A stretch of 64,000 nt of DNA from IMG/VR virus record IMGVR_UViG_3300045391_002681, positions 34,412-98,411 of that record. The stretch is one strand, 5' to 3'. Positions 1 to 51,833 of this stretch are shown here, one piece after another (the first letter of the stretch is position 1; every line of letters starts with the position of its first letter). This DNA comes from a virus. The position numbers were made by a program, and so were the translations under genes. The notes below the pieces were generated by a model. The model searched no databases. It was not told the origin of the DNA and was given only the letters and a program-made list of their open reading frames with translations.

Positions 1-987
1 CGCCGAGTAGAACATCTGCTGGCTCATGTACCACTTGGCGCCAGGCAGGGCGTATTGCGGCAGCTTGCCCATGGTGCCGGTGAAGTCCGCCACAGTGAGC
101 GCCGTCAGGGTCGCGGACGAGGTCTGGTATTGGCCGGCGGTGTGGTTGCCGTCCGCGAAGATGGTGGAGACGCCGCGGATGCCGCCGTACGAGGAAGTGC
201 CGTCGCCGTTGAAGCCAGCGTCGTCTTCCTTGGCCGCGAAGGCGTAGGCGATTTCACCCACCAGCCAGTCGGCGATGGACACCACGGCGTCCTCGGCGAT
301 CTCGTTGGACATGCGGGTGAGCGCGCCGAGCTTCTTGGCGGTCAGGTTCACCGCGTCCCAGGAAGCCTGGGACTCGCTCACCGCCTGGTTTTCGCCGGTG
401 AAGAATGCGGTCAGACCGCCGGTGCGGCGCGGCCAGTTCAGGGTGTCGGAGCCCATCGGGACGACCTGGCACTCGCGGCGGAACACGCCGAACTGCTCGC
501 GCAGGACGATGATGTTGGCCAGCAGCTCTTCCGGAACCAGGAAGCCGCCGGCGCTGTCCACGCCCTCGCCCTGGGCCTTGGTCACGGGGATGCCGCGCGA
601 CTTGCACCAGTCGATTGCCTCGGCGTTGCCGAAGATCGTGGCCTTGAACCACATGCCGGCGGTGTAGGCCTGGTCGACGGCGCGGACGGTCTGGCCGGCC
701 ACTTCGCGGTCCTTGAAGTGCTTCAGGCTGCCATAGACCTTATGGGCGCTGGGCGGCGCCGAGGGCGTCAGGCGGTCCTGGCCAGGAACGGGGGTGGCGA
801 GGCTGCGGGCGATCGCCTGGGCGTCCTCCAGCTGCTTGATGCGCTTCTGCAGTTCGGGGATCGTGCCGTCCTTCAGGGCGTCATAGACGTCCTGCTTGAA
901 GCCGTCGGCTTCGGACTTGCCGGCCATCGCTTCGAGTTCGTCGACAGCCTTGCTCAGCTGCTGACGCAGTTCATGGATCTTCGCCAT
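1..987 (-). CDS. Major capsid protein, HK97 fold with N-terminal delta (coiled-coil) domain; runs off the window
   Basis: Not in the ORF track; manual translation from ATG 987: MAKIHELRQQLSKAVDELEAM...TKAQGEGVDSAGGFLVPEELLANIIVLREQFGVFRR...LTAKKLGALTRMSNEIAEDA...AAKEDDAGFNGDG. Confidence 0.93.
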   Translation of the reverse strand, partial: MAKIHELRQQLSKAVDELEAMAGKSEADGFKQDVYDALKDGTIPELQKRIKQLEDAQAIARSLATPVPGQDRLTPSAPPSAHKVYGSLKHFKDREVAGQTVRAVDQAYTAGMWFKATIFGNAEAIDWCKSRGIPVTKAQGEGVDSAGGFLVPEELLANIIVLREQFGVFRRECQVVPMGSDTLNWPRRTGGLTAFFTGENQAVSESQASWDAVNLTAKKLGALTRMSNEIAEDAVVSIADWLVGEIAYAFAAKEDDAGFNGDGTSSYGGIRGVSTIFADGNHTAGQYQTSSATLTALTVADFTGTMGKLPQYALPGAKWYMSQQMFYSA

Positions 988-1011
988 GGGGTGGGCTCCA
1001 TCTAGGGGAAA

Positions 1012-1032
1012 GCGGCGTCGTCGCGACGCTGC
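1012..1032 (-). promoter_or_regulatory. Conserved hairpin in the capsid leader (GCAGCGTC-GCGAC-GACGCCGC)
   Basis: 19/21 identical to 50954-50974, upstream of the P22-type coat gene. Confidence 0.6.
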
Positions 1033-1115
1033 GGTTCGCCTTGCCGAAGGGCGTGTTGAGGCGGAGCTAGACGCTTGGCGTCAGCCCGATTCCGGGGTGT
1101 CGGTGACCCGAGATT

Positions 1116-2600
1116 TCAGTTGTTGGTGGGCAGGGACGCCTTCAGGCGCGCGACCTCTGCGAGCCGCTTTTCTTCAGGAGTCATGTCGACGGGGTCATCG
1201 GGCCCGACCGCGCTCGGCTCCGGCGTGCCACCGCCGTCGTCGAGGTCGGTTCCCTCCTCCACTTCGTCGTCCGGCTCATCGTCGAGGACGGACTTGATGC
1301 AGTCGGTGGCCATGGCGTGGTAGCTCATGGCCCGCTCCAGCATCGCCTTCGTCGCGGCCGAGACACGGCGCCCGGCCTTCAGGGCAACTTCGACGGCCTC
1401 CCTGATTTCGGTCGAGTCGATCTTGAGCAACAGCGTCTGGACGCTCTTGTCCGGCTTCATCATCGCCTCGTAGTGGTCGAGCACCGCCCTGCCCGTCTCC
1501 TTGACGCTGTCTGGGATGTCGGATTGCGGCAGGCGGGAAGCGGCGGCGCGGATGCCCGACGCCATCGCCGTTAGCTTGCCGTCGGCCACTCGGGCGAACG
1601 GGAGCTTGTAAGAGCCGCGCAGCTTGGGGGCCGAGGCGTCGTAGGCCAGGAAGCCCTTGCGCGCTTCGGCCGGGTCGAAGTCATCGCCGCCGGCATGTTC
1701 GAAGATCGAGGCCTCGGCGGTGCCCCCGTCCCAGGCGCCCTCTTCGTCCAGCGGCAGATCGCGGGCGGCGCCGCATTTCCAGTCCTCGCCGGCTTTGGTC
1801 TCCTCGATGGCGCGCAGCGTGTAGCCCGGCTCCAGGATGAGCAGTTCGTTGTGGTCCTGGCTCCACCGCTTGAAGGACTCGCGCATCCGCTCTAGCCCCT
1901 TGGCGGAAACGTCGCGGTCGCCCTGGATGTAGTATTGAACGCCTGCGCCGGTCCGGGCCTGGAGGCGAAGGGCCTCGATGTCCTTGCGGGGCATGAAGAT
2001 CGTGTCGCCGCTGTCGAGCACCTTTTCGGCCCATTCCTGGAGCGGCCGAGTGTCGACGCCCATGCTGCGGGCCTCACCGAGGGCATTGGGATTGCACGGC
2101 ACCGGGCAGACGGAGATTTCGAGGAGGGTCTGCTTCTTGAAGTCGATGCCGTACGGCCGGTTCTTGTCGGACGTGAACGCCCACTCCTTCGGCAGGAAGC
2201 CGACCGAAACGGCGTTGAGGAACTTGCCCTTGACCAGGCGATAGATGGTGTCGGCGAACTCGTAGATGTCAGGCGTGGCGAACTCGATGTCGCCGACCAG
2301 CTCGCCGCCTTGCACGCTCACGTTGGACGCACGCCCGATCGGCGGCTCCCAACTCATGTGGCTGAATAGCGCGACCGGGTTGCGCTTGAAGATGCCGAGG
2401 TCCCAGCCCTTCGGGTCTATGCTATCGCCCGAATGGTCGACCGTCGCATCGGAGAACACGAAGCGCTGCGTGCGCGATGCTTCGTCGCCGACTTGCTGCG
2501 GCTCGGCCGTGGCGAACTTGAACAGCGTGGCCTCAGGCTGCTGGCCACCGTCCTTCACCGCAGCGCGGAAGGCGTCTGCGTCCAAGAGCTTCATGGTCAT
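1116..2600 (-). CDS. HK97-family prohead protease with long C-terminal extension
   Basis: SDATVDHSGD, NPVALFSH, AVSVGF and LLEISVCPVPCNPNA motifs; lies between portal and capsid. Confidence 0.92.
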   Translation of the reverse strand: MTMKLLDADAFRAAVKDGGQQPEATLFKFATAEPQQVGDEASRTQRFVFSDATVDHSGDSIDPKGWDLGIFKRNPVALFSHMSWEPPIGRASNVSVQGGELVGDIEFATPDIYEFADTIYRLVKGKFLNAVSVGFLPKEWAFTSDKNRPYGIDFKKQTLLEISVCPVPCNPNALGEARSMGVDTRPLQEWAEKVLDSGDTIFMPRKDIEALRLQARTGAGVQYYIQGDRDVSAKGLERMRESFKRWSQDHNELLILEPGYTLRAIEETKAGEDWKCGAARDLPLDEEGAWDGGTAEASIFEHAGGDDFDPAEARKGFLAYDASAPKLRGSYKLPFARVADGKLTAMASGIRAAASRLPQSDIPDSVKETGRAVLDHYEAMMKPDKSVQTLLLKIDSTEIREAVEVALKAGRRVSAATKAMLERAMSYHAMATDCIKSVLDDEPDDEVEEGTDLDDGGGTPEPSAVGPDDPVDMTPEEKRLAEVARLKASLPTNN

Positions 2601-2609
2601 GGCGGTCCC

Positions 2610-3668
2610 TTACGGCGCGACCAGCACGGCGAGGCTGCCGGCGTTGGTCGAGTCGCCCATGTCGTGGATCACGGCGTCGAAGCGCTCCGTGGCGAGGATG
2701 GCGATCTGGTCGGTGTCGAGATAGCGATGGTCGCTGCGGGCAATGGTGAGGCCGCGGCGCTGGCCGAGGACGGCGGCGGCGTACATGTCGCCGAACGCCA
2801 TCATCGCCTTGCCCGAGGTGACGCTGGAGCCGAGCGGCAGTTTCTGGCTCATGACAACCGGGAAGCCGAGGTACATCGGCGTCGGGATGCCGTCGGCCTC
2901 GCCTTCATGCAGGCCGCCACCCCCAGCGGAGGCCAGGCGCACCATCGTCTGGCCAAAGCCGGTGACGCTCACGAACCACGCCGCACGCGGGAGCGCCGAG
3001 GCTCGCACCGCGCCGACCAGCTTTCCGAGGTCCGCGCCGGTCAGCGAGGCGAAAGCGTCATTGCTGGCGGCGACGTTGGCGGTCCCGTGGCTGCCGTCGG
3101 TCGCGAGCGGGCCGATGCCGCGCATCCCGCCATAGGTCGAAGACCCATCGCCGTTGAACGCGCAGTCGTCTTCCTTCGCGGCCAGCGCCCAGGCCATCTC
3201 GTTGGCGACGTAGTCGACTAGGTCGACGATGGAGTCCTCGTCCAGTTCGCTGGACAGGGTGACGAGCGCGGCCAACTTCTTGGCGGTGAGTTGGACCCCG
3301 TCCATGTTGGTCGAGGTCGCGGCACCGGTCGCCGCCGAGCCGCCCTCGCTCAGGAAGAAGGCGGCGGCCGTGCCGGTGCGGCGCGGAAAGAGAGAACTGT
3401 CCGAGCCCATCGGCCAGACACAGGCCCGGCGCCGGAAGGCGCCGAAGCTGTCGCGCAGGTCGAGGATGGCGTTTTCAAGCTCAGTTGGGACGAGGAAGCC
3501 GCCGCCGGAGCCGATGCCCTCGCCTTGGGCCTTGCGGATCGCCACGCCCTTCTTGTCGCACCAGGTCCGCGCTTCGGCGTTGCCGTAGATTGTGGCCAGA
3601 AGCCACTTGCCGGCGCGCTCATAGCGGGCGTCGATCTCCGGGCCGGAGCCGGGAAATGCTCGTTTCAT
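2610..3668 (-). CDS. Second HK97-fold capsid protein paralogue (no coiled-coil delta domain)
   Basis: KAQGEGIGSGGGFLVP, LTAKKLAALVTLSSELDED and AAKEDDCAFNGDG align with 1-987. Confidence 0.9.
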   Translation of the reverse strand: MKRAFPGSGPEIDARYERAGKWLLATIYGNAEARTWCDKKGVAIRKAQGEGIGSGGGFLVPTELENAILDLRDSFGAFRRRACVWPMGSDSSLFPRRTGTAAAFFLSEGGSAATGAATSTNMDGVQLTAKKLAALVTLSSELDEDSIVDLVDYVANEMAWALAAKEDDCAFNGDGSSTYGGMRGIGPLATDGSHGTANVAASNDAFASLTGADLGKLVGAVRASALPRAAWFVSVTGFGQTMVRLASAGGGGLHEGEADGIPTPMYLGFPVVMSQKLPLGSSVTSGKAMMAFGDMYAAAVLGQRRGLTIARSDHRYLDTDQIAILATERFDAVIHDMGDSTNAGSLAVLVAP

Positions 3669-3683
3669 TCGGCTCGTCCTTGC

Positions 3684-5015
3684 TCAGTCTTGTGGCGCGG
3701 AGGGGTCTTCAGTCGCCGCCGGGTCGCCACGGCCGCCCGCTGCGGGCGCTCCGGTCACGTCGCTTCCCGGACCGGTTTCCTTGCCGGCCGGTTCGAACCC
3801 GATCGGCGCGACATTGGTCGGCTGGTAGAGGTCGTCGCCGCCATCCATGTCTTCCCAGCCGTCGGCCCATTCCGCTTCGGCGCGGCGGGCCTGGTTGGGC
3901 TTCATGAACATCCCGACGATGCCGGTGCGGTAGGCGTTGTAGCGGGCCGTCATGTTGGCCCGCATGAGGATCGAGGTATCGAACTGAACGATCAGCCCCT
4001 GCTCGGCCAGGCCGAAGTCGTGAGCCAGCTTTGCTTCCCAGCGCCCAAGGTCGCCGGAAACCGGACCGTTCATGTATTCCTGGTCCATCTGCTCGACGGT
4101 GGCGCCGTTGGCGCCCGGAACACCGAGCTTGTGCAGAGGCATTCGGTAGAGGCGTGCGATCTCCGGGACTTGGAAATCACGCGAGGCGACCAGCTCGGCG
4201 TCCTTGGCCGACATGCCGAGCGGCTGCCACTTCAGGCCCTGCTCGAGCACGGCGGTCTCGCCGGCGTTCTGCAAGCCCTGGCGGCGCTTCTTCCAGTCCT
4301 CGCCGATGCGCTTGGCGGCTTCTGGGGTCAGCTTCCCGTCGGTCGTGAGCACGCCGCCGAGGTTGGTGCTATTGGCGCTCAGGCGCCCGGCCAGTTCCTG
4401 TTGAGATAGGGCCAGGCCGATAGCTTCACGCGCCAGGGCGATCCGAGAGGCGCCGTAAAGCGAGTTGTCGAGCGCCATCCAGCGCAGATGCAGCATGTCC
4501 TCTGACGGGATCATCAGAGGCATGTCTTCGAGCACGGCGGTCTCGTGCAGGCCGCGACGCGCGACCTGGTAGAAGTACTGACCGCCAGGGGCCTCGTAGA
4601 TCCAAACCCGGTCTGGGTTGACCGGGATCAGGGCCGTGACGTTCCCGCGCCAGTCCCGCAGCTTCACCGCATAGGCGTTGCCGCGGAGCAGGATAGAGAC
4701 CTGCATCTGCTCCTTGAACTCGAAGGCGCTCTGGTAGTCGTTCGGGCGCTGAAGCACCTTCTCCAGCGGGTGGTCGGCCACGATCTGCCGGCCGCCATTG
4801 GGCAGGCACCGATAGACGTGAACCGGAAGCTTGGCGATGTCCTCGGCGCGGATCGAAACACAGGCCTGGACGGTCGACACCTGTAGCGCGGTCAATTGGG
4901 TGACCGCCATGCCGCCGGCGCTGACGGACGTGGGGCCGTACTCCGACCACCACTCGTCGATCGTCATCGACTTCTTGCCGCGGATGGCGTCGACGACGCG
5001 CGACCAGTAGCTCAT
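3684..5015 (-). CDS. HK97-family portal protein
   Basis: VQACVSIRAEDIAKLPVHVY, LLRGNAY, VLEQGLKWQPL, EIARLYRMP. Confidence 0.95.
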   Translation of the reverse strand: MSYWSRVVDAIRGKKSMTIDEWWSEYGPTSVSAGGMAVTQLTALQVSTVQACVSIRAEDIAKLPVHVYRCLPNGGRQIVADHPLEKVLQRPNDYQSAFEFKEQMQVSILLRGNAYAVKLRDWRGNVTALIPVNPDRVWIYEAPGGQYFYQVARRGLHETAVLEDMPLMIPSEDMLHLRWMALDNSLYGASRIALAREAIGLALSQQELAGRLSANSTNLGGVLTTDGKLTPEAAKRIGEDWKKRRQGLQNAGETAVLEQGLKWQPLGMSAKDAELVASRDFQVPEIARLYRMPLHKLGVPGANGATVEQMDQEYMNGPVSGDLGRWEAKLAHDFGLAEQGLIVQFDTSILMRANMTARYNAYRTGIVGMFMKPNQARRAEAEWADGWEDMDGGDDLYQPTNVAPIGFEPAGKETGPGSDVTGAPAAGGRGDPAATEDPSAPQD

Positions 5016-5032
5016 CGTTCGCGCCTCTGGGG

Positions 5033-6907
5033 TTAGAAGAACAGCAGGCCACGCTCCTCGTAGACGAGCCGGGTTTGTCCGACCGTCCGGGTCGCGGCCC
5101 CGACCGCCATGGCCAGCGCCACGAGCGGGTCGATGCGTTGCGTCGCCTTCCGCTTGGAGAACCAGCGGTTGTCGAATGGGTCGTGTTCGATCGCCGCCGA
5201 CGCGCAGGCCGAGACGAGCACGGGATTTCGCAGTAGCCGGATACGCCGCTCAAGGATCAGCTCCTCGAGCGTGTTCAGCGACCCCGGCATCCACAGTCCT
5301 TCCGGCGGTTCCTCACCGGCCAGCTTCGCCGCCTCGATCTCTGCATCCGTCGGCCTGGCCCGGCGCTTGCCACCCTGGGGATGCTCGACCTCGTTCAAGG
5401 TCAGGCCAAGGGCGTCCAGCTCGTCCGAGAGCTTGCGGTAGGCGTAGCGGTCGTAGGCCACGGACCGGATGATGAAGTCGCTGTCGTCCTCGGCGATCGC
5501 GGAGGCGACGAAGTCCATGCGGACGGTCGGCCCCGGCGTGGCCCTTAGGTGGCCCTCGGCGACCCAGACATCGTATGGCGCCCGGTCGGCAAGCGCCCGC
5601 TCAGCCAAGGTCTGGGCCGGCGTCCAGGCCTCGATCCAGGCGTCATAGGTCGGCTTGAGGATGGTCGTTCCATCCTCGCGCTCGACCTCGATTTCTCCGG
5701 TCTGCACGACGCAGGCCTTCGCCGTGAGATCCTTGGTTCCCGACAGGTCGAGGCCGAGGTCGATTTCCTTGCCGCGGTGCTCCTCCGGATCGAAGTCCGC
5801 AAGAACCGCCTCCAGCGCCTCCCGGCCGATCCAGGCGTCCTCGGCATCGGTCCAGACGCAGAAGTGAAGGCGCATCACGCCGTTCAATTTGCCCGGCATG
5901 GCCTTGGCCTGACTGACGACCCCGGCGAGGTATTCCGGCGTGATCGTCACGCCCAGGAGTGGGTTGGCCTTGGCCCAGCAGCTCGGATCGGTGAGCGGGT
6001 CGTCCCCGTCATCCAGGGAACAAACAAAAGCGAAGGTGCTGTCGTCCTCGATTTCGCGCCGAGCGACTCGGATCGCGTGGTCGTGCTCTTCCCAGCAGAT
6101 CGAGTTCCGGTCTGAGCCGGAGTTGGTGATCATCAGCAGGAGCGGCTGGCGGCGGAACTTGAAGCCGCGCTCCAGCATCTCCATCGTCGAGCGGTCAGGG
6201 TGCTCGTGAACCTCGTCGCAGAGCGCGACGTGGGGCCGCGGGCCGGAGCCGGTCTTGCCCGCCTCTTTCGAGATTGGCCGGAAGAACGAGCCCGACGGAT
6301 GGTGGGCGATGTTGTATTCCCGTCCGGGGCCACCGCTGAACTGAAGCCGCTTGGCCAGGGCCGGCGACTTGCGCACCATCTTGACCGCGTCGCGGAACAG
6401 GATTCCGGCCTGCTCCTTGCGGGCGCCGGCGGCGTAAATCTCCGCGCCGGCCTCGTCGTCCGCTGTCTGGCAGTAGAGACCTATTCCGCCCGCAAGCGGT
6501 GACTTGCCATTGCCCTTGCCCTGCTCGACGTAGGCGCGGCGGAACCGACGGTTGCCGTCCGGCCGCTTCCAGCCGAAGATCGAGCCCAGGATGAACGCCT
6601 GGGACGGATGCAGCCGGAACGGCTGACCCTCAAACTGGCCCTCGCTGAGCTGCAGGACCGTTTCGAAGAACCCGAAGATGCGGTCGGCCGCCTCGGTGTC
6701 GAATCTCAGGCCGCGCTCATGGCCGCGCTCGAGGTCGTCCAGGTGTCGCCTGGCGGCGTCGCGGACATGCGGGCCGGCAACGATACGCCCTTCCGCTACA
6801 TCCAGCGCGTACTGCGTCGTGCGGTCAGTTGAAGAAGCGATCGGCCGGGTCTTCGTCCTCGTCATCCGTCTGGCCGACCTTCGTTTCATCGACCGGCGTC
6901 GCCGCAA
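5033..6907 (-). CDS. terL: Terminase large subunit (start may be about 6865)
   Basis: Walker A GKGNGKS, Walker B LCDEVH, ITNSG, nuclease motifs GLDLS and RIDPLVA. Confidence 0.95.
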   Translation of the reverse strand: MRRRRSMKRRSARRMTRTKTRPIASSTDRTTQYALDVAEGRIVAGPHVRDAARRHLDDLERGHERGLRFDTEAADRIFGFFETVLQLSEGQFEGQPFRLHPSQAFILGSIFGWKRPDGNRRFRRAYVEQGKGNGKSPLAGGIGLYCQTADDEAGAEIYAAGARKEQAGILFRDAVKMVRKSPALAKRLQFSGGPGREYNIAHHPSGSFFRPISKEAGKTGSGPRPHVALCDEVHEHPDRSTMEMLERGFKFRRQPLLLMITNSGSDRNSICWEEHDHAIRVARREIEDDSTFAFVCSLDDGDDPLTDPSCWAKANPLLGVTITPEYLAGVVSQAKAMPGKLNGVMRLHFCVWTDAEDAWIGREALEAVLADFDPEEHRGKEIDLGLDLSGTKDLTAKACVVQTGEIEVEREDGTTILKPTYDAWIEAWTPAQTLAERALADRAPYDVWVAEGHLRATPGPTVRMDFVASAIAEDDSDFIIRSVAYDRYAYRKLSDELDALGLTLNEVEHPQGGKRRARPTDAEIEAAKLAGEEPPEGLWMPGSLNTLEELILERRIRLLRNPVLVSACASAAIEHDPFDNRWFSKRKATQRIDPLVALAMAVGAATRTVGQTRLVYEERGLLFF

Positions 6908-10975: not shown

Positions 10976-11635
10976 TCACGGCCACCTCTTGTCGGTCTCG
11001 CCGAACTCGAAGCGCGCCGAGCGCGAGGCGTCGTAAGCCTTCTGGAAGGCTTGGCTGATCACCGGTCGCCAATGGCCGTCTGTGCTGGGATAGGAGTCGG
11101 CTTCGTGGATGTGGCCAAGCCAGCCCTGCCGGTTTGGCGGAAACTGCTCGCCGGTCTCCGGGTCCACCACAGGCTTGGCAGACGGAAACGAGAGGCAAAG
11201 GCCGCCGCGCTGGGAACAGCTCGAGAAATAACCGAGGCCGTCTTCGCGCTGCCGGAACTGATGGTACGGGTAGTCCTCAGTATCTCTGAAAAGCAGCAGT
11301 TGCGGAGTAGAGTCCGGCGCGCCGACGGCAAGGAAGACCAACTCGTGAGAGGCACACGCAAGCTCCCAGCACTTTCTCTTTTCGTCATCGGTAGGCGACT
11401 GACCTTTAACCTCAAGCCAATAGTTGCGATTGAAGTCGGGATTGTCATCTTCCCACAGTTTGATCTGGTCGAAAGTAGAGAACCTGAAGTCTGGAAGATA
11501 TGGTCCGGACGGAAGAACAATCCCCTCCGGTTCATACTCGAACTTGAGTTCGAGGGCGTCGAAGAACACCGCCCAGCGCGCCTCGGTGCGTGACCGAAAG
11601 CGATAGCCCTTCCACTTAGTCTCGATGGGCTTCAC
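10976..11635 (-). CDS. PD-(D/E)XK-type nuclease-like protein
   Basis: FRSRTEARWAVFFD...EYEPEG...YLPDF...WLEVKG; paralogue at 57735-58409. Confidence 0.75.
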   Translation of the reverse strand: MKPIETKWKGYRFRSRTEARWAVFFDALELKFEYEPEGIVLPSGPYLPDFRFSTFDQIKLWEDDNPDFNRNYWLEVKGQSPTDDEKRKCWELACASHELVFLAVGAPDSTPQLLLFRDTEDYPYHQFRQREDGLGYFSSCSQRGGLCLSFPSAKPVVDPETGEQFPPNRQGWLGHIHEADSYPSTDGHWRPVISQAFQKAYDASRSARFEFGETDKRWP

Positions 11636-12660
11636 GCGCTTTTCCTCTCTGGCTGATCATTGACGACAATGTGCACGCCGACGGCGCGCAACGCTGCGCC
11701 GACTTTGGCCTCCAGCGTTTTGGCCATGAAGGAATTCGGCGCGATTACCTGCCGCCGACCAGCGTCCCACCCGCAGGGGTCGAGATAGCCCAGGGCAACG
11801 CGCTCGCCATCAGCACCTGAGGCGACAACCGCGCGCCTTATCTCAGCAGGTCCAGTGAACTCTGGAACGGCCGCTGCGGCCTGCACGGGAGCGCCTCCGT
11901 AGAAGCCCTCCAATAGCCTGCGCCATGACTTCGGCTGGCAGACGAAGTCGATGTCAGCTTTCCAGCCGCGGTCGTTTTGACCACGGCAGTGATCGCTGCG
12001 TTCGACAGCGGCCAGGGCCTGGCGCCAGGCATCCATTCCGCCTTCCGAGAGGCGGGCATGTATCGCGGCCTTCCGTGACCTGTCGATGGTCCTGGCCTGA
12101 GGGAGGCCAAGCCTAGCAGCCAACGCGTTCCACTCGTCTACGGCGATGCGGACTGCGTCGTTCGGCTTGCCGGCGACAAAGGATGCGTCAGCATCCTTAT
12201 CTTCTGGTGTAGGTGAAGGTCGCGCGACCAACGCGGGTGTTTCACTCTGGGTACCCCGCTGGGTATCCTGGAGAAAACCTGCTGGGTTATTTGGGGGATT
12301 GCCGTCGGGTTTGTTTCCGCTTGGCTCTTGGCTGCGTGGGCGCCCTCCCTTTCGACCGTTGGCGCGGCTTGTCTCGGCCATGCGCGCGGCCTTCTCATAC
12401 TCCTCAAGCACCCGCCCATGCACTAGCCACTCACCCTCGACCGAGAAGAACGGAAGTAGCTTCGGGGCAAGCTTACGCCACTCGGACGTGCTTGCTTTCA
12501 CGATGGCGGCGAGTTCAGACTCGTCATTCGGGAGCCGCCCTCCGCCATCCCAGCAGGCTAGCAGAAGCAGGAAATATCCGCCGTGCTGGTCCCGCGTCAG
12601 ACGCATGGTCTTACGCAGGTAGTCCGCAGGGTAAAACGGCATCCAGGCGTCGGCTTTCAC
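11632..12660 (-). CDS. YdaU/DUF1376-family replication initiator
   Basis: WMPFYPADYLRKTMRLTRDQHGGYFLLL; downstream of dnaB; internal repeats. Confidence 0.85.
   Translation of the reverse strand: MKADAWMPFYPADYLRKTMRLTRDQHGGYFLLLLACWDGGGRLPNDESELAAIVKASTSEWRKLAPKLLPFFSVEGEWLVHGRVLEEYEKAARMAETSRANGRKGGRPRSQEPSGNKPDGNPPNNPAGFLQDTQRGTQSETPALVARPSPTPEDKDADASFVAGKPNDAVRIAVDEWNALAARLGLPQARTIDRSRKAAIHARLSEGGMDAWRQALAAVERSDHCRGQNDRGWKADIDFVCQPKSWRRLLEGFYGGAPVQAAAAVPEFTGPAEIRRAVVASGADGERVALGYLDPCGWDAGRRQVIAPNSFMAKTLEAKVGAALRAVGVHIVVNDQPERKSA
12233..12320. repeat. Iteron-like repeats (putative ori of prophage 1)
   Basis: (C/T)GGGT cores at 12234, 12248, 12260, 12283 and 12306, inside the initiator gene. 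Confidence 0.45.
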
Positions 12661-28174: not shown

Positions 28175-30050
28175 GCAAACTGACTGCGCCGCAATTAGCC
28201 GCGCTGCAACTCGTTTCGGTGTGGTCCAAGCCCGGCGGGACGTACATGCCTAGGGCGCGCCACGCCCGAACATTCGAGGTCTGTGTTCGGAAGGGCGTTC
28301 TTGAGTACCGCTCCGTCGATCACGGTTCGCCGTACAACGGATACGCCCTCACCGATGCCGGTCGCCAAGCTCTTCAGGGGACCACCCCATGACCCCATCC
28401 GAAGAGAAGGACGTGCGGGAGATTCGCATGTCCTGCAACTGCGACCCGACGTGGCGACAGTGCTTCTCAAGCGACTGTCCGCGAGCAGCGGTCATGGTCC
28501 CAAGGGGCCGACTAGCGCTGCTTGAATCCGCCCTCCAATCCGCTGAGCGGCTGAGCAAGTCACCCTGGATCACGGAAGAGGGCTTCCGCGATGTGGAAGA
28601 CCTGCTCGACATGGGGCGCATTGGCCGGTCCTTGATGGACGACATCGCCTCATGCGTCCACTCGACAGCGGGCTACGAGCACTGGTCGCCTGCCGACGAT
28701 CCGGCCGAAATCGTGGTTGATCTCATCAACGATCTCACCGACACGCGCGCCGCCCTCCAATCCGCCGAACAGCGCGCAACCAAGCTGGCAGAAGAGGTGG
28801 AGCGGCTGAAGCCGTTCGAGGAAGCCGCGAGCACATGGGCTATCGCGTGCGGTGTCGCCAGGGGCGAGCGAGATATCGCCGAGGGCAGACTTGCTCTCCT
28901 GGAACGCCGCTCCGGTGATGTGGTGGTGCTGCCGCGTGAACCGACGCGCGAAATGTGGGCGGCCATGGGAAACGCCCTGGTCGGAAGCACTACTGTTCAT
29001 CACGACGCTGTAGCGGCGAAAGTCTGGTCCGCGCTCGTCGCCCTAGCCCCACTCCAGGGGGAAGAGGCGCCATGAGCCTGAGCCCCGAGAACAAGGCGCT
29101 CTTGGAGCAGCTATACGACTTCGGCCCCCCGCTCCCAGCGCAGTTCGTGTTCAGCCGGGAATCCCTGGACGAACTGATGAACGCAGTCCGCGCCCAACCC
29201 CACCCCGACGTGGCCCGGCTGGTGGAGGCGCTGAAGCGGATCGCGGAAATGAACCCCCGCGAGACCATACCCGAATTGCGTCCAGCTTGGCGGCGTGCCC
29301 TTGGGATCGCCCGCGCAGCCATCGCCCCCTTCAGCTCCACAGAGGAGAAAGGGTGATGCCGTACGAGGTCGTGCGCTACCACTGCAACGTCTGCCGTCAG
29401 CCCTACAAGAAGTACGCCGAAGCGGAGAGGTGCGAACGGCAGAACCACCACGCGCGCACAGTCTGGCCTTCGCACCGCCCCACCCCCGCAGAGGAGCCTT
29501 AAGCCATGGCCGAGCAAGACCTACGGGAGCAAGTGGCGCGGATTCTGCTGCCAGCCGCTTTCGAGCGCTTGGACGACGGATGTGCCGACCGTGAGGACCG
29601 CGAGGAAATCGCGGGCGCATTGGAAATCGCAAGCGATGTCCTCTCTCTGGTCTCCTCCACCAAGGAGGGATGGCGGCTTGTTCCGGTTGAGCCGACAGAG
29701 GAGATGATCGAGGCCTATTGCACAACGCTTGAACGCCTCGGCTTCACGTCATGGGTCACGGCCAGCACAGTCTGGGCCGCCATGCTCGCCGCTTCTCCAT
29801 CCCCAAAGCTAGACCACAAGACGCCTTCGGAGGGGGAACGTTGAGCGGGCGGGTGCGAGCAACGCTCGGCGAGATGCGCCGGTTACGCGCGGAGGTCGAG
29901 GCGTTGCGCGGCGCCATTAGCTGGGTATCCCCCGAACTGATCGCCGGCCGAAGTGACGCGGAGATCGTGAAGCGCGTCGGCTTCCTGAACCAGGACGTGC
30001 AGCGCTTCGACAAACGCCGCGCCCCCTCCCCATCCGGGGGCCAGCCATGA
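28171..30050 (+). other. Cluster of modular ea/ead-like early genes
   Basis: Coupled ORFs (28171-28392, 28389-29075, 29072-29356, 29506-29844) with recurring PxEPTxEM and PDxARL modules. Confidence 0.55.
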
Positions 30051-30259
30051 GCGCTCCGATCACCCGGGCCCTGATCGAGCGAGCTATCACGGCCATGGAA
30101 TCCACCGGCCATCCCGTGAAAGGCGTTCGCCTGTCCCCAGATGGGTGCGTTAGCCTATTGACCGAGACGCCCGCTGGCGCCCTAGCGTCCAATGACGACC
30201 AGGGAGATTGGCTGAGTCTTGCCGGCGAGACGGACGTACCTCGTGCCCAAGGGGCTTAA
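30047..30259 (+). CDS. Putative excisionase
   Basis: 70-aa ORF overlapping the integrase start. Confidence 0.5.
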   Translation: MSAPITRALIERAITAMESTGHPVKGVRLSPDGCVSLLTETPAGALASNDDQGDWLSLAGETDVPRAQGA

Positions 30260-31370
30260 ACCCGTCAAGCGCAAGCTGGCGAACGGCGATGTGCGGACCT
30301 ATTGGTATCACCGCGCCACCGGAAAGGCCCTGACGCACGATCCCGAGACCGCTGAGGGCCTTCTAGAGGTCGCCGCGCTGGACAGGCGCAGCGGCGTCAC
30401 ATCGGCCGCCAGCGGCCATCCTGGCGGCTCCTACGCGGAATTGTGGGCTGAGTACCGCAAGAGCCCCGAGTGGAAGAACCTGCGGCCCCGCACCCGATCC
30501 GATTACCAGGCCGTCCGTGACTGGCTGGGCGACAAGGCCGCCGAGCGCATGATGCTGAAGCAGCTCACGTCAGGCGACCTATTCAAGCTCCGCGACAAGG
30601 CGTTCAAGGCCAAAGGGCGCCGGTTCGCCAACTACGTCGTCCAGGTCATGCGCCTCACGCTGAAGTGGGGCAAGAAGCGCGACATGCTGGCGGTCAACCC
30701 GGCCGAGGAAGTCGATCAGATCCGAAAGCCGACCGGAGAGGCTAAGGTCAACCGGGCCTGGACCATGGCCGAGGTCGAAGCCTTCGCCAACGCCGCGCCG
30801 CCGCACCTGATCCTGCCGTTCATGCTCGGCCTCTTCGCGGGGATGCGCCAGGGCGACGCCCTGCACGTCACCTGGAGCGCCTATGACGGCCTCGCCCTAC
30901 GGTGGATCGCCAGCAAGAACGGCGAGCCCTGCATGGCCCCGGTGAGCGGCGATTTCAAACGCCTGCTGGACGCGGCCAAGGAGCGCCGGGGTAAAGCCGT
31001 CCAGATCGCCGTCACGTCCACCGGCACGCCCTGGACACAGAGCGGGTTCCGCGCCTCGTTCTTCAAGCTGCTGCGGACGCTCCGCGCCGCCGGCGCCGTG
31101 CAGCCGGGCTGCACCTTCCACGGCCTGCGCCACACCATCGGCTCAACAGCGCGTGATGACGGCCAGAGCGAATCGCGGGTGGCCGCCGCCATCGGCGACC
31201 GGAGCCCCGCCATGGCCCAAATTTACGGCCGCGACGCCGACAAGGCCGAGGCGCAGACCACGGTTCTGGAGGGCGTGCAGAAACGCTTTGCGAACATCGA
31301 TTGGAAAATATCGGCAGCTGATTGGAAAACGGCTCGCTCCCCGAAGGGTGCGAAATCGCCGAAAACCTGA
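30219..31370 (+). CDS. int: Tyrosine integrase
   Basis: GMRQGD (R), SKNG (K), FHGLRH, QIYG (Y); adjacent to the tRNA att core. Confidence 0.93.
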   Translation: MPARRTYLVPKGLKPVKRKLANGDVRTYWYHRATGKALTHDPETAEGLLEVAALDRRSGVTSAASGHPGGSYAELWAEYRKSPEWKNLRPRTRSDYQAVRDWLGDKAAERMMLKQLTSGDLFKLRDKAFKAKGRRFANYVVQVMRLTLKWGKKRDMLAVNPAEEVDQIRKPTGEAKVNRAWTMAEVEAFANAAPPHLILPFMLGLFAGMRQGDALHVTWSAYDGLALRWIASKNGEPCMAPVSGDFKRLLDAAKERRGKAVQIAVTSTGTPWTQSGFRASFFKLLRTLRAAGAVQPGCTFHGLRHTIGSTARDDGQSESRVAAAIGDRSPAMAQIYGRDADKAEAQTTVLEGVQKRFANIDWKISAADWKTARSPKGAKSPKT

Positions 31371-31484
31371 ATGAAAAGAAAGTGGTGCCTGGGGGCGGAA
31401 TCGAACCACCGACACGCGGATTTTCAAGCGGAGCGTTTCCCTAGTCTTTATAATGGGGAGCGGTCGGGCTGATTGGAAAACGGC
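31299..31484. repeat. Integrase arm-type sites flanking the att core
   Basis: GCTGATTGGAAAACGGC at 31317-31333 and 31468-31484; partial copy GATTGGAAAA at 31299. Confidence 0.75.
31383..31426 (-). other. att core = 3' half of tRNA-Phe(GAA)
   Basis: TGAAAATCCGCGTGTCGGTGGTTCGATTCCGCCCCCAGGCACCA; no 5' half. Confidence 0.88.
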
Positions 31485-31513
31485 GGCCGAACGCCGAAGG
31501 GGGAGCGGGCCAG

Positions 31514-32035
31514 ATGGAAAACGAAATTGGCGTCTATCTCCTCTTTCGAAAGAGGAGGCTCGTCTATGTCGGGCGCAGCAAAAACCCTCCGAAACGCGTC
31601 GACGCTCATAGGCGAAACGGTCGGGCCTTTGACTACTCCCTGACCGTGAATTGCCCCGCTGAAGATGTGGCCTGGATCGAGCGCGCACTGATTGCAGCGC
31701 TGAACCCGCCTCAGAACTCCTTGGGCGTGACGGCCAAGACGGAAGAGGCGCTGGAGGCCCAAGTCGTCAAGATCATCTACCGGGACCGCCCCGTCAGGGT
31801 CGATCCGCCGCCACCGGTCTATTCGCTGACCGACGCCGAGCGCGTCGCGGACAAGAGCGGCCTACGCGTGCCCTTCCTGAAAGACGTGAGGTCAGGCGCC
31901 CTACCCTCCGCACCAAAGAACCCTGCGTTCACCGGCCCTCGGTGCCGGCGCGTCATCACGCACGAAGACTTGACCAGATGGCTATCGCGGATGGACGAGG
32001 CGCGGCGCGCGTCGGGGTGGTCCGTGCCCGCTTGA
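31514..32035 (+). CDS. GIY-YIG nuclease with possible C-terminal excisionase-like HTH
   Basis: IGVYLLF...VYVGRSKN...RVDAH; C-terminus YSLTDAERV...RRVITHEDLTRWL. Confidence 0.7.
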   Translation: MENEIGVYLLFRKRRLVYVGRSKNPPKRVDAHRRNGRAFDYSLTVNCPAEDVAWIERALIAALNPPQNSLGVTAKTEEALEAQVVKIIYRDRPVRVDPPPPVYSLTDAERVADKSGLRVPFLKDVRSGALPSAPKNPAFTGPRCRRVITHEDLTRWLSRMDEARRASGWSVPA

Positions 32036-32067
32036 CTCCCCGCCGCCAGTTGCCGTTTCGTTCCGGC

Positions 32068-32301
32068 ATGGCCCAACTGACCCTCGGCTACCTCCTCTCC
32101 GAGGACCCCAACCGCTCCCTCCGGTTCGTCTGCGATTCCTGCCCTCATTGGACGGACAAGCCTCTACCAGCCCTGTGCGTAGCCCTTGGAGAGAACAAGC
32201 TCCTGAAGGATGTGAAGCCCAAGTGCTCCCGGTGTGGGGCTAAGGGATCGAAGGTCAGGGTCGAGGTCTGGAAGGATACGTGGAGCGGGCCGAGGGGGTA
32301 G
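32068..32301 (+). CDS. Small Zn-ribbon protein
   Basis: CDSC...CSRC. Confidence 0.65.
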   Translation: MAQLTLGYLLSEDPNRSLRFVCDSCPHWTDKPLPALCVALGENKLLKDVKPKCSRCGAKGSKVRVEVWKDTWSGPRG

Positions 32302-32302
32302 A

Positions 32303-32440
32303 TGCTGCGGCCAGCGGTTTTCAGGCTTGAGCAACCGTTAGCGTCGGAACCGCATGTAGGTCGCTAAATGGGCCTGACGGAGGGTTCCGCGCCCTCCCGC
32401 AACTACCTTATGGACGCCCGCGAGTGACGCCGCCGCAGCA
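32303..32440. ncRNA. Candidate structured RNA
   Basis: 9-bp closing stem TGCTGCGGC/GCCGCAGCA enclosing several hairpins. Confidence 0.4.
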
Positions 32441-32518
32441 CAAATAATCTAACCGAATCCGATTGGAATCGCTATGCTTTTTCTCGCCACGGCAAAGGCT
32501 CTTTGGTAACATGACCAA

Positions 32519-32803
32519 ATGAGCCGGGACCTGGAATTTCTCGCGCAGCAGATGGTCAGCCCGCGCCGCCGGGACCCGAACGACCGGGAGCGCCTAGCGG
32601 AGGCCGCTCATCGAAAGCGCTGCGCCAAGCACAAAGGCCGCAACCACTGGGCAAACTGGGAGCGCCGGCAAATGGCGGCCGAGAAGCGCGCCGCCGCCGA
32701 GGCCAAGACAGAGAAGCGACAGCGGGCCTGGGCGGCCTACGTCGAGCAGGTCCGGGCGTACTGGTCGGGCGACCGACGCGATCTGCCGAGGCGGCCGGCA
32801 TGA
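32519..32803 (+). CDS. Basic hypothetical protein
   Basis: ORF ATGA-coupled to the next gene. Confidence 0.55.
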   Translation: MSRDLEFLAQQMVSPRRRDPNDRERLAEAAHRKRCAKHKGRNHWANWERRQMAAEKRAAAEAKTEKRQRAWAAYVEQVRAYWSGDRRDLPRRPA

Positions 32804-33081
32804 AGGCGCCCTATGAACTAGTCCTCGTCAAATGGGAGGACAGCGCTCAGCCGCGGGCGGCATGGGAGTGGCTTGACGAATATGAGCTTGAAGGCCCCAT
32901 CATCTGTGTTTCGGTGGGCTACCTCGTTGCGGAAACCGATTTCGCCATTGCCGTCGCGCCGAACCTCGGGGACATCGACCTTTCACGCGCCCAGGCCAGC
33001 GGGATTATGAGAATCCCTCGCTCGGCCGTGCGATCCATGGAAAAGCTGACGGTTGTCGCCTCCGCAGATAAGGCCGCCTAA
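32800..33081 (+). CDS. Hypothetical protein
   Basis: VLVKWEDSA...CVSVGYLV...IPRSAV, compact beta-rich phage protein. Confidence 0.65.
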   Translation: MKAPYELVLVKWEDSAQPRAAWEWLDEYELEGPIICVSVGYLVAETDFAIAVAPNLGDIDLSRAQASGIMRIPRSAVRSMEKLTVVASADKAA

Positions 33082-33090
33082 GCGCCACCG

Positions 33091-33327
33091 CTATCCATAC
33101 TCCCTCAACACCTTCGCCACGTCCTTCCTCAACTCCGGCTTGATCCTCCACCCCTCTCCCACCTGTTCGAAGTAGCCCAGTTTCGCCAGATGCGTTGCGC
33201 AGGCCATGCGGTGAAGCCGGGCCTGGATGTCGCCTGAGGGGTCTGCTCGGATCACACCGCCCTTCGCTGAGCACGCTTCGCGCAACAGCTCTATTTCCGT
33301 GTCCGTTAGGAGGATGTCCTTGGGCAT
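33091..33327 (-). CDS. Small winged-helix-like hypothetical protein
   Basis: LTDTEIELL...HLAKLGYFEQVGEGWRIK. Confidence 0.55.
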   Translation of the reverse strand: MPKDILLTDTEIELLREACSAKGGVIRADPSGDIQARLHRMACATHLAKLGYFEQVGEGWRIKPELRKDVAKVLREYG

Positions 33328-33487
33328 GACAGACGCCGAACTGCTCGACGCCATCTACTGGAAGGTGATGGCGTGGCTGAAGCCGATGCCGGGCGTTCCC
33401 GCTGACGAGACCCTGTTGCAGATCATCGAGCTATTCGAGGCCAACGGTCGGGAGTTCGTGAAGGTGGACTATCCGGCGAACGACTAG
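33326..33487 (+). CDS. Small hypothetical protein
   Basis: AGGAGGA upstream; MTDAELLDAIYWKVMAWL... Confidence 0.5.
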   Translation: MTDAELLDAIYWKVMAWLKPMPGVPADETLLQIIELFEANGREFVKVDYPAND

Positions 33488-49642: not shown

Positions 49643-50914
49643 TCAGGTCTGTCCGAACAACTCGATGCCGGCCATCTCGGGGTTCAGGCACACCGTCCCC
49701 CAGAGCGCATCGAAGCGGTACTTGGTCGAGAGGTCGTTGATGGAGCCCTGGCGGGTCATCACCAGTTCCAGGCCGTCGTCCGTGGTTCCGCGCATCACGG
49801 CCAGGCCGCTGTCGGGAGCCGGCATCAGGCGGCCGGGCAGGATTTCCATCACGTCGCCGGCCCAGAACACGTTGGCGGGGGCCGCCACTGTGTTCAGGAA
49901 GGTGATCGCGGCGGTGTCAGCCGGAGTCGCGGTGACGTTCTGGTATTGGGCCTCGGCGTTGGTCGAGCCGCCGTTGGAGATGATCGGCGGGGTGATGGTG
50001 ATCACGCCCGAGCCGCCGGCGCCCGACACGATGGCCGTCACGCGGAAGGTCTTGGCGAGGCCGGTGTCCTGCTTGGTGATGTGGTGCACCGCGTTGACGC
50101 CGGCGATCTGGAACGCGTCGCCGACCGCGATGGTCCCCGAGGTCACTGCGACCGTGAGGTTCTGGAAGCGGTTGTCCACGTTGGTGTAAACGCCGTCCGC
50201 TTGCAGGACCGTGGCGGCCGGGGTGTAGAACTGATTGGCGCCGTTCACGGTGACGGTGACGGCGGTCTTGGCGGCCAGTCGCTTGGCGTAGTTGAGCTTG
50301 TAGGTCTGGAAGCCGGCCACTTCGCCGAGATAGGCGCGCTCGTAGGCTTGCAGCGACTTGGAGTTGTCGAGCACGCGCGAGGCCAGGTTGGCGGCCATGT
50401 TGTTGTAGTCCACCGGGCTCAGGCCGAAGACGCGGCTGTCTTCCTGGATGCCCAGCTGGGTCATGGTCGAGTCGGCCAACGCGATGTCGGTGAAGCCGGT
50501 CGCCGCCGCCGTGTTCTTGATCACGATGGAGCCATAGGCCGCCGCGGTGTTGGTCAGGGACACGTTGATGTCGGAGGCCAGCTTCTGGCGCGCGCCCGAG
50601 CCGAGCCGGCCTTCCTGAAGCGCGTCGCGGAGCTGCTTGGCGGTCAGGGCAAACGGAACGGTCTGCTGGTTGTTGATCGACGCCGGGACGGAGAGCTGGG
50701 TCACGTCCTTGAAGTTGGACGACATGTCGCCGCCGCCCGAATAGGAGGTCATGATGTAGGGTTGCGGGCGCCAGATGATGTCGCCCGACCGTTCCATGGT
50801 CTCCTGGTTGGTCTTGTAGACCTTCGCCATCTTGGTGGCGACGACGGCGTCATTGAAGCCTTCAAGCAGTTGGTCGAAGGCGACGGTTTCTTCTTTGGTG
50901 AAGGCGTTGGCCAC
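49643..50914 (-). CDS. Major capsid protein, P22 gp5 family
   Basis: MANAFTKEETVAFDQLLEGFND...MERSGDIIWRPQPY...KYRFDALWGTVCLNPEMAG. Confidence 0.93.
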   Translation of the reverse strand: MANAFTKEETVAFDQLLEGFNDAVVATKMAKVYKTNQETMERSGDIIWRPQPYIMTSYSGGGDMSSNFKDVTQLSVPASINNQQTVPFALTAKQLRDALQEGRLGSGARQKLASDINVSLTNTAAAYGSIVIKNTAAATGFTDIALADSTMTQLGIQEDSRVFGLSPVDYNNMAANLASRVLDNSKSLQAYERAYLGEVAGFQTYKLNYAKRLAAKTAVTVTVNGANQFYTPAATVLQADGVYTNVDNRFQNLTVAVTSGTIAVGDAFQIAGVNAVHHITKQDTGLAKTFRVTAIVSGAGGSGVITITPPIISNGGSTNAEAQYQNVTATPADTAAITFLNTVAAPANVFWAGDVMEILPGRLMPAPDSGLAVMRGTTDDGLELVMTRQGSINDLSTKYRFDALWGTVCLNPEMAGIELFGQT

Positions 50915-50953
50915 TTGCGTAGTTCCTTCTGGCCCCTCGGGGCTCTGGGACGG

Positions 50954-50974
50954 GCGGCGTCATCTCGACGCTGC
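50954..50974 (-). promoter_or_regulatory. Conserved hairpin in the coat leader (GCAGCGTC-GAGAT-GACGCCGC)
   Basis: Matches 1012-1032. Confidence 0.6.
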
Positions 50975-50984
50975 TGTCAGGTTG

Positions 50985-51833
50985 CTACCGGGCCTTGGCC
51001 TTCAGCTGGCGCTTGTATTGGACGACCTTGGTGCGGTCCCCCGAGCGCGCGGCTTCGGCTTCCAGCCGTTCGAGATGCTTGTCCACCGGGGCAGAGAGCG
51101 GGGCCGAACCCCTGACGATCTGTTCCGGCGGCGGCGGTGCGTTGCGCTTGTTGGTCACGGTCAGTTTCCCTTCCAGCCTTCCAAGCTCACCGGCCAGTGC
51201 GATGGGGTTCGAAATCTTGGCGAGTTCGGCGGCTTTGGCGGGGTTTCGGCCGAGATAGAGCGTCACGGCGGCGCTGTTCTTCGGCGCCCACGTAAGCACG
51301 GCCTGCTGCGTCTCGTTGAAGGCCGACTGAACTTCCTCAAGTGCTCGGGGAAGGTCTTTGGCCTTCAGGTCGGTGAATTGCTTCCCGACCTCGGCGACGC
51401 GGGTGTTCCACGCTTCCTGCTGCTGCTGCTGGGCTTTCAGCGCCTCGGCGTTCTGCCTGTCGGCTTGGGCCTTTCGCGCCTGCCACGCCTCGTATTCCTG
51501 CTCGAACTTGTCCGTGTCGAATTCGCAGGTTTCGAGGGTTGGCTTGTCGCCTACCTCGATCCTCGGCGGTTCCTGCTGGCGGTTTTTGGCCTCCAGCTCG
51601 CGGGTCAGTTCGCGGTTACGGGCGCGCAGTTCGCGGAGGACGCTGTTGTCCGGCTGCTCGCTTGGGGGTGGCGCTCCCCCTTCGCCCTCGAAGATGACCA
51701 GGACCTCGTCGTCTTCGTCGCCCTCAGGCGGCTCGGCCTCGACTTCGGTCCGTTCCTCCGGAAGCTCAACGTCCCCGGCGGGGATGTCGATTTCCGGCTC
51801 TTCGATGGCGTCGTCTGCCATTGAGTGCCCCAT
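50985..51833 (-). CDS. Scaffolding protein
   Basis: Acidic N-terminus, KPTLE..DTDKFE, C-terminal ARSGDRTKVVQYKRQLK. Confidence 0.85.
   Translation of the reverse strand: MGHSMADDAIEEPEIDIPAGDVELPEERTEVEAEPPEGDEDDEVLVIFEGEGGAPPPSEQPDNSVLRELRARNRELTRELEAKNRQQEPPRIEVGDKPTLETCEFDTDKFEQEYEAWQARKAQADRQNAEALKAQQQQQEAWNTRVAEVGKQFTDLKAKDLPRALEEVQSAFNETQQAVLTWAPKNSAAVTLYLGRNPAKAAELAKISNPIALAGELGRLEGKLTVTNKRNAPPPPEQIVRGSAPLSAPVDKHLERLEAEAARSGDRTKVVQYKRQLKAKAR

Follow-up and report, generated by a model that had tools for sequence, protein, structure and literature searches.

A conserved RNA hairpin joined to the ribosome-binding site of unrelated late genes in alphaproteobacterial prophages: a candidate portable translation element

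Why would the same 21-nt hairpin stand shortly before two major capsid genes of different types within one stretch of viral DNA? The 64-kb window analyzed here, by which we mean that whole stretch, is part of a 98.4-kb IMG/VR record that comprises two different prophage-like genomes, and its minus strand carries the motif at 1012-1032 and again at 50954-50974. The first-pass annotation had placed both hairpins at exactly these coordinates and at the correct distances from the start codons, and the sequence also agrees with it that the two are identical at 19 of 21 positions, differ only in the loop and share an A.C mismatch (stem position 3/19). Copy 1 (1012..1032, minus strand; GCAGCGTC-GCGAC-GACGCCGC, or GCAGCGUC-GCGAC-GACGCCGC as RNA) is built from a lower stem GC/GC, the A.C 1x1 mismatch, an upper stem GCGUC/GACGC and the loop GCGAC; it is present in the minimum-energy fold, has a delta-G of -10.3 kcal/mol and is the window's top match to a covariance model, at 59.7 bits. 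Copy 2 (50954..50974, minus strand; GCAGCGTC-GAGAT-GACGCCGC, or GCAGCGUC-GAGAU-GACGCCGC as RNA) has the same stems and mismatch around the loop GAGAU, scores 41.3 bits against the covariance model and is likewise present in the minimum-energy fold, at -9.1 kcal/mol. The first copy lies 83 nt from the stop codon of a prohead protease gene and 24 nt from the ATG of capsid A; the second lies 10 nt from a scaffold stop codon (50985-50987) and 39 nt from the GTG (50914) of a P22-type coat gene.

On the minus strand, copy 1 thus separates the protease (494 aa, Peptidase_S78; 1116..2600) from major capsid gene A, an HK97-type gene (PF05065; 1..987, ATG 985-987) that extends past the window and encodes a full protein of 439 aa, and copy 2 separates the scaffolding protein gene (50985..51833) from the P22-type coat gene (PF11651, 423 aa, GTG start; 49643..50914). 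BLASTP detected no similarity between capsid A and the P22-type coat, which, together with Pfam, bears out the earlier statement that the genes are dissimilar. Its companion, that the flanks are dissimilar too, holds only in part, because all copies have a CCC block immediately 3' of the hairpin and an (A/U)GA(U/A)GGA block that includes the Shine-Dalgarno sequence. For copy 1, alignments delimit a conserved single-stranded block, CCCC-UAGAU-GGAG (996..1008, minus strand), in which GGAG (996-999) is the Shine-Dalgarno sequence, and an accessory hairpin, P1 (1037..1053, minus strand; stem CGCC/GGCG, 9-nt loop CUUCGGCAA), precedes the main hairpin, P2. For copy 2, the CCC block 3' of P2 is UCCCA (50946..50950), followed first by an extra small hairpin, GCCCC-GA-GGGGC (50932..50943), and then by AAGGAA (50923..50928), the coat gene's Shine-Dalgarno sequence, all on the minus strand. 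Leaders of the P22-coat subtype typically contain such an inserted hairpin, and the same layout recurs in loci L264, L265 and L100.

A second capsid-family gene lies nearby. Capsid B (352 aa, PF05065 capsid-family; 2610-3668, minus strand) follows the portal gene after a 15-nt gap, and the window scan returned zero covariance-model matches upstream of it, in keeping with the earlier remark that this gene lacks the hairpin. The minus-strand head operon (window 1-5015) runs portal (3684-5015), capsid B, Peptidase_S78 protein and capsid A; two capsid-family genes therefore sit in one head module, and capsid A has a long N-terminal extension.

The same record holds a third copy beyond the window (G000:C1:28901-28920, minus strand; L263:1402-1421), with the same stems around a 4-nt loop, GGAC. 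It follows a tail-completion gene by 3 nt and precedes the major tail gene by 25 nt, so that in this record the element stands before the genes for capsid A, the P22-type coat and the major tail protein. All that these three copies have in common is the hairpin, the 3' CCC block and a (C/U)(A/U)GA(U/A)GGA block holding the Shine-Dalgarno sequence. Two further features of the record concern its composition. Near-identical ORF pieces (95-100% over 32-90 aa) occur on the plus strand at G000:C1 ~67-5641 and ~62800-67898, the second set corresponding to window ~28400-33500; they lie ~62 kb apart, bracket the HK97-type genome and may be an assembly repeat, or else derive from tandem prophages whose attachment-site or host flanks were duplicated. 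An early gene pair common to both prophage-like genomes (window 10976-12660 and 57735-59128, minus strand), consisting of an unnamed ~220-aa protein (37% identity) and a DUF1376 protein, is probably a common replication module. A search of public sequencing runs listed no RNA run with this DNA, and one DNA run that matched a small share of its words.

Could the resemblance between the hairpins be accidental? Within the window alone, two or more matches at <=3 mismatches arose in 5 of 100 shuffles; the window-only match is weakly significant, and what decides the matter lies outside. IMG/VR was scanned for both stem arms, matched exactly, around any 5-nt loop, which yielded at least 120 matches, counting 118 listed stretches and the two copies of this record. 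The loop is GNGAY, which covers 8 of the 1024 possible pentaloops, in 41 of the 120 exact-stem matches listed, where ~1 is expected, an enrichment of about 40-fold among these matches; those listed with other loops are ordinary coding sequence. A sense-strand start codon and a long ORF follow shortly downstream in 38 of the 41 GNGAY matches listed, and the other three comprise two chance occurrences in coding sequence and one at a contig end.

Genome scans place these copies in a restricted set of hosts. When one genome per prokaryotic species was scanned for exact matches, most were chance matches in the coding DNA of high-G+C genomes, chiefly Actinobacteria, and about eight were true elements. 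Copies with CCC..AGAUGGAG and a start codon were found in Phenylobacterium, Caulobacter, Afifella, Bauldia and uncultured Alphaproteobacteria, the Caulobacter and Phenylobacterium carriers (L155, L123) being metagenome-assembled; the named hosts are all Alphaproteobacteria, except for a single doubtful copy from a Nitrospinota MAG. MAGs of Gaiellaceae and other Actinomycetota (L151, L152, L206, L207, L216, L225, L232) contain the exact 21-mer as well, with the loop GCGAC, GCGAT or GAGAC, at one conserved spot in what is apparently a coding region, followed by ..TACCAGGGAGG and conserved across several MAGs; this 21-mer has no relation to the phage element. Built from 48 elements, a covariance model of the core (R1) found matches in 1-2 contig regions of each of five alphaproteobacterial genomes (3-5 Mb), on one strand per region, and none elsewhere in these five genomes. 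Across 401 genomes of the order, 18 matches were obtained at <=1 mismatch against 4 for the control; most of the 18 break the hairpin, and canonical copies amount to a handful. A model scan of 150 genomes across the class gave a match in the centre genome only, a result of little weight with just 39 candidates scored per genome, and blastn of two leaders against 50,697 GenBank phage records returned zero copies, its matches being chance partials, mostly in mycobacteriophage coding sequence.

This evidence served to test, and to reject, the reading that the hairpins resemble each other by chance or are dispersed REP-like repeats of the host that play no part in phage gene expression; we consider it very improbable. 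It can draw on the shuffles and on the exact 21-mers that arise by accident in coding sequence of many high-G+C Actinobacteria, but it does not fit the loop enrichment among the matches listed, the near-universal placement before start codons, the covariation described below or the confinement of matches to prophage regions in five host genomes. That confinement, with the few true copies in the 401 genomes, argues that the element is not a host REP. The first-pass annotation had named random positions or a dispersed host repeat as what would count against its idea, and the idea survived this comparison: the element is phage-specific and not a host repeat. It appears from the sequences to be widespread in alphaproteobacterial prophages, as an apparently undescribed RNA leader motif.

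Does the hairpin act as RNA or as a DNA site? Because loci were gathered by capsid protein similarity, their variation was not selected on the hairpin. Relatives of the P22-type coat carry the element in only the two closest cases, and among relatives of the HK97-type capsid at >=70% identity many form a hairpin from different stems at this position, with upper stems such as ACGCC/GGCGU, CGCU/AGCG, CCGUC/GACG(C)G and UCGCU/AGCGA; read by hand, loci L321, L324, L328-L330, L337, L339 and L340 have wholly different stems in the same architecture. We counted pairs over the model hits from capsid-anchored loci and host-genome scans, together with the three copies of this record. Pairing is kept in 98.7% of cells, and five of the seven pairs show double, compensatory changes, a result that none of 500 shuffles reached. 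The mismatch, by comparison, is never Watson-Crick (A.C, C.C, A.G, A.A, C.A, C.U): in 29 distinct elements, with these two positions left free, it is A.C in 22, C.C in 3, A.G in 2, A.A in 1 and C.A in 1, and C.U is found in relatives. It costs ~6 kcal/mol, lowering stability from -15.3 to -9.1 kcal/mol. The loop is GNRA-type on the sense strand only; read antisense, the commonest mismatch becomes a G.U pair, the other variants stay mismatched and the loop is no longer GNRA-type. Compensatory stem changes, an unpaired 1x1 mismatch and GNGA(Y) loops indicate an RNA structure, and this structure, the loop type and the constant sense orientation together indicate a hairpin in mRNA. P2 is absent from most relatives of the P22-type coat (<=62% identity) and from one whole branch of HK97-type capsids, so the element must be dispensable. 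In two loci (L339:2857-2904 and L351:2856-2903), a second, weaker copy lies right after the capsid gene and before the next head gene.

These results bear directly on a role in transcription. The hairpin might be a weak intra-operon terminator or pause site read through by a late antiterminator, as happens in lambdoid late operons, or part of a late promoter or activator site in which TAGAT serves as a -10-like element. The many same-orientation copies before late genes are reminiscent of phage late promoters, and CCC(A/T)TAGAT may loosely resemble the -10 of heat-shock-sigma promoters, with a CTTG in the P1 loop. Compensatory stems and a GNRA-type loop on the sense strand, however, are properties of RNA and not of a duplex DNA site. 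A U-tract is absent (the 3' flanks are UUUCCCCU or CCGUCCCA), no intrinsic terminator was called at either site, and neither was a sigma-70-like promoter in a scan confined to sigma-70 -35/-10 pairs at 16-18 bp spacing. With TAGAT as a -10, moreover, the transcript would start downstream of the conserved GGAG; CTTG lies ~39 bp from CCC..TAGAT, and the TAG of the block varies among elements (TAG, CAG, TTG, CTG, TGG, AAG). We regard a transcription signal as improbable.

What the element is tied to can be read from its anatomy and spacing. The leader is ordered, 5' to 3', as an optional P1, P2, 1-5 nt, CCC, 2-4 nt, (A/U)GA(U/A/C)GGAG with the Shine-Dalgarno sequence, 5-10 nt and the start codon. 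P2 comprises a lower stem of 2-4 bp, an obligatory 1x1 mismatch, an upper stem of 4-5 bp and a GNRA-type loop (GNGA/GNGAY; the loops observed are GNGAY, GNGA or GGAY, rarely other), is present in the minimum-energy fold of every example tried and is joined to CCC..AGAUGGAG, the conserved block in which the Shine-Dalgarno sequence lies. CCC is conserved at >=90% in the leader alignments, and the distance from hairpin to Shine-Dalgarno sequence is mostly 10-13 nt. Of 48 distinct elements, 45 have 19-27 nt between the 3' end of P2 and the start codon; the remaining three, copy 2 among them, carry one extra small hairpin, and their start distance is 39-42 nt. The upstream stop codon, by comparison, lies anywhere from -12 to 88 nt from the element. 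P1 stands 5-7 nt upstream of P2 in about half of the leaders (copy 1 has it, copy 2 does not), and 33 of 70 related leaders present its 9-nt loop consensus CYUNGGCAA on at least 10 different complementary stems. A distant capsid branch keeps P1 in the absence of P2, and P1 may therefore be a separate RNA motif. P1 also occurs in loci L015, L019, L087 and L321-L359, and the branch that lacks P2 has a further conserved upstream stretch, GCCGCGCAUCGCGUCGCUGGCA. The whole is a compact, sequence-defined RNA module of ~45 nt.

One copy shows the same register inside a gene. Five long viral records have 1-3 copies each, and a Caulobacter prophage (MAG contig G001:C87, L417) has at least 10 within 20 kb, placed before portal, head protease, virion structural protein, major head, major tail, a fibre-like gene and others. 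At L417:10430-10480, a complete copy lies inside the ORF of the head-maturation protease, 20 nt before an in-frame ATG (codon 200). Every feature is kept in this copy: the upper stem is fully compensated, the mismatch is C.C, the loop is GAGAC, and both CCC and GAAGGA are present. By analogy with lambda C/Nu3, this internal ATG suggests a nested, scaffold-type start.

The element might instead serve intercistronic processing or stability, with RNase E cutting in the A/U-rich linker, or with the hairpin blocking exonucleases or RNase E scanning, such that segments of the late transcript would have different half-lives; the hairpins of the Rhodobacter puf operon, intra-operon REP elements and T7 RNase III sites are models for such a role. 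A stable hairpin that lacks a U-tract, in the intergenic gaps of long late operons and next to an A/U-rich linker (UUAGAU) in a genome of ~65% G+C, would suit it. Yet its register is fixed to the downstream start and not to the end of the upstream gene, one copy is intragenic before an internal start, a classical RNase III site needs a longer stem than 7-8 bp, and protection from decay requires neither a sequence-specific stem nor a conserved mismatch. We judge this reading unlikely. The hairpin keeps a fixed register to Shine-Dalgarno sequence and start, the conserved block takes in the Shine-Dalgarno sequence, the upstream distance varies, one copy is intragenic and there is a bias toward abundant virion proteins; all of this connects the hairpin with the beginning of the cistron downstream and not with the end of the one upstream, and the link to Shine-Dalgarno sequence and start, with the nested intragenic start, favors translation initiation over mRNA processing.

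That bias appears in the genes that follow. Among the matches listed, 26 distinct canonical elements include seven before PF05065 capsids, six before PF11651 P22-type coats, five before tail tubes, two before scaffolds and two before Gp80-type fibres, and several of the 26 precede other major-head PHROG families. From these associations the element seems to mark heavily expressed virion genes. The first-pass annotation had proposed a portable cis-element that might boost or stabilize capsid mRNA by way of a host factor or processing nuclease, and a covariance-model scan for enrichment before capsid genes. Portability is strongly supported, the same hairpin recurring in the same orientation and at the same start distance before at least four capsid sequence families in many unrelated phages and prophages. 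The scan found the element before capsid genes as predicted, though not before these alone: tail-tube, scaffold and fibre genes, and also portal and protease genes, are preceded by it, so it is not capsid-specific. Since the low-copy portal and protease genes belong to this set, in the multi-copy Caulobacter prophage, a formula in which the element boosts abundant proteins may be too narrow.

Our best reading, which we put forward with moderate confidence, is that the element is a portable, ribosome-binding-site-linked translation element, a structured leader of late phage mRNA. We propose that the hairpin forms the core of a sense-strand module in late mRNA, a "start-associated hairpin" with which the ribosome-binding site is fused, and that it would act in cis to give high translation initiation at cistrons lacking translational coupling to the preceding gene, with the most abundant virion proteins (capsid, tail tube, scaffold) as its main targets. 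General knowledge of 30S footprints, applied to a hairpin that ends 19-27 nt before the start and about 11-13 nt before the Shine-Dalgarno sequence, would place it at the mRNA exit of the 30S channel, beside the SD/anti-SD helix of the platform. In that position it could shield the ribosome-binding site from the coding sequence upstream, and its GNRA-type loop and mismatch could offer a docking surface for the 30S subunit or a host protein, the CCC tract being recognized along with loop and mismatch by the ribosome or that protein; a block to 5'-end-dependent decay might be a side benefit. An effect on translation, its positive sign and a partner among host components are all three what we infer from sequence and position. 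In many unrelated phages the stem sequence is conserved more strongly than a pure insulator would require, which implies a sequence-specific partner. All-against-all BLASTP found no shared phage-encoded trans-factor: three tail genes encode the only proteins that the Caulobacter prophage contig has in common with this record, and the phage parts of the record's two prophages share only early-region genes, of which the DUF1376 pair is the sole Pfam-named one. That no other protein is shared favors a host partner, or none.

A phage- or host-encoded RNA-binding protein acting in trans is another way in which the conserved sequence could be put to use, the hairpin being its operator: bound to the GNGA(Y) loop, the mismatch and CCC, the protein would either free or block the adjacent Shine-Dalgarno sequence and so gate or time late translation. 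Mu Com on mom mRNA and the coat-protein hairpin operators of RNA phages are precedents. Stem, loop and mismatch are conserved far beyond structural need, and many same-orientation copies occur within one phage, as such an operator would have it; folding also allows a weak UCC/GGA pairing of the CCC block with the Shine-Dalgarno sequence, and this pairing, if it forms, would make the element a repressive or switchable operator and not an enhancer. The layout further resembles that of the SAS elements of mycobacteriophages, whose authors left open a host- or phage-encoded binding product (PMC3203893). The pairing, however, is of 3 bp only and, both sides being invariant, lies beyond the reach of covariation, and there is no candidate protein common to the carrier phages; we think an operator rather unlikely. 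Returning to a translation element, its boldest form is a horizontally portable "super ribosome-binding site" whose loop, mismatch and CCC would dock on the 30S platform or on an alphaproteobacterial ribosome-associated protein, which we offer as a tentative possibility.

Several other identities were tried for the leader and rejected. Pairing of the loop with the 16S 3' end was dropped as loop position 2 varies freely, and an upstream start at the AUG in AGAUGG was dropped as this triplet is also ACG or AAG. Alignments vary in position or spacing for a hammerhead-like CUGAUGA core, for sigma-54 and heat-shock-sigma promoters split by the hairpin, for a CsrA site and for a tRNA-like CCA end. 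A frameshift or read-through stimulator of the upstream gene was rejected on the distance to the stop codon, which is not constant.

From one late transcript, a phage must obtain hundreds of capsid and tail-tube subunits and few copies of neighboring products, and to our knowledge how these virion ratios are set is understood for only a few model phages. Unrelated phages of Alphaproteobacteria have each placed this module before capsid and tail genes, and once before an internal start. If it raises translation, it would explain part of virion stoichiometry in this host group, point to a new recognition surface on the ribosome or on a host protein and provide a ready-made expression part for Caulobacter, Rhizobiales and relatives. 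Were the super ribosome-binding site real, late structural messages would be preferentially translated, and the element would be a bacterial-virus counterpart of the internal ribosome entry element that unrelated phages of a single host group pass among themselves. The element is also of practical use for marking structural genes with high expression in uncultured prophages of Alphaproteobacteria, and it makes a clean candidate for a new family of RNAs.

How does it compare with described systems? Comparison with Rfam 15, which the first-pass annotation had suggested, matched no family at seven element loci (no relevant match up to E = 10). In the literature, the sequence was not found except as unrelated primers, and word searches turned up the SAS papers as the sole analogues. 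REP and BIME sequences are scattered in many copies over the host chromosome, whereas the element is confined to 1-2 regions per genome in the five genomes scanned. The lambdoid boxB, to which the first-pass annotation had likened the loop, is similar in its 5-bp stem (here the upper stem), its GNRA-like loop of 4-5 nt and its occurrence in phage RNA, and the GNRA-like description holds for GNGA/GNGAY; identity with boxB or a nut site does not. BoxB is a single site behind an early promoter, whereas the element occurs in 1 to at least 10 copies that abut the ribosome-binding sites of late genes (this record has three and a Caulobacter prophage at least 10, each before a late-gene start), with an extra lower stem and an obligatory mismatch, and an N-like gene was not identified. 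The conserved neighbor is CCC-N2-4-(A/U)GA(U/A)GGAG, with the UUA positions free, and not a boxA (CGCUCUUA-like), which is absent, so the element is not a nut site.

The intra-late-operon terminators annotated in GenBank for lambda- and HK97-like phages are likewise G+C-rich and intergenic and often lie just before the capsid gene, but the element has no U-tract, has a conserved sequence, loop and mismatch, keeps a fixed distance to the start and also occurs within an ORF. The PeSL cassettes of T4-type phages, reportedly described by Arbiol, Comeau and Krisch in 2010 as mobile regulatory cassettes with an early promoter in hyperplastic early regions, share with the element a short conserved stem-loop before unrelated genes that apparently moves between genomes. 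They differ in that PeSLs carry an early promoter and lie in early regions, whereas the element has no promoter consensus and belongs to late structural modules.

By analogy, the closest described counterpart is SAS/ESAS of Cluster K mycobacteriophages (PMC3203893). As described by Pope et al. (2011, PMC3203893), Cluster K genomes carry SAS with the 13-bp consensus GGGATAGGAGCCC; it is absent from the host chromosome, stands before genes of unrelated families and is often preceded by an inverted repeat, and a role in translation initiation is suspected (PMC3203893). Both SAS and our element are short, conserved, asymmetric sequences with a Shine-Dalgarno core a few nucleotides before start codons, occur in many copies per phage in one orientation, serve unrelated gene families and are not host-chromosomal, and the cores are alike (GGGATAGGAGCCC in SAS, CCC-TAGATGGAGCC in the element). 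Host phylum and sequence differ, however; SAS belongs to the non-structural half of the genome and the element to the structural, late half, and SAS is found in one phage cluster, whereas the element crosses unrelated phage types. The ESAS repeats show no compensatory changes, and the authors favored DNA binding for them (PMC3203893); the element, in contrast, has compensatory changes, a conserved mismatch and a GNRA-type loop, the marks of an RNA structure.
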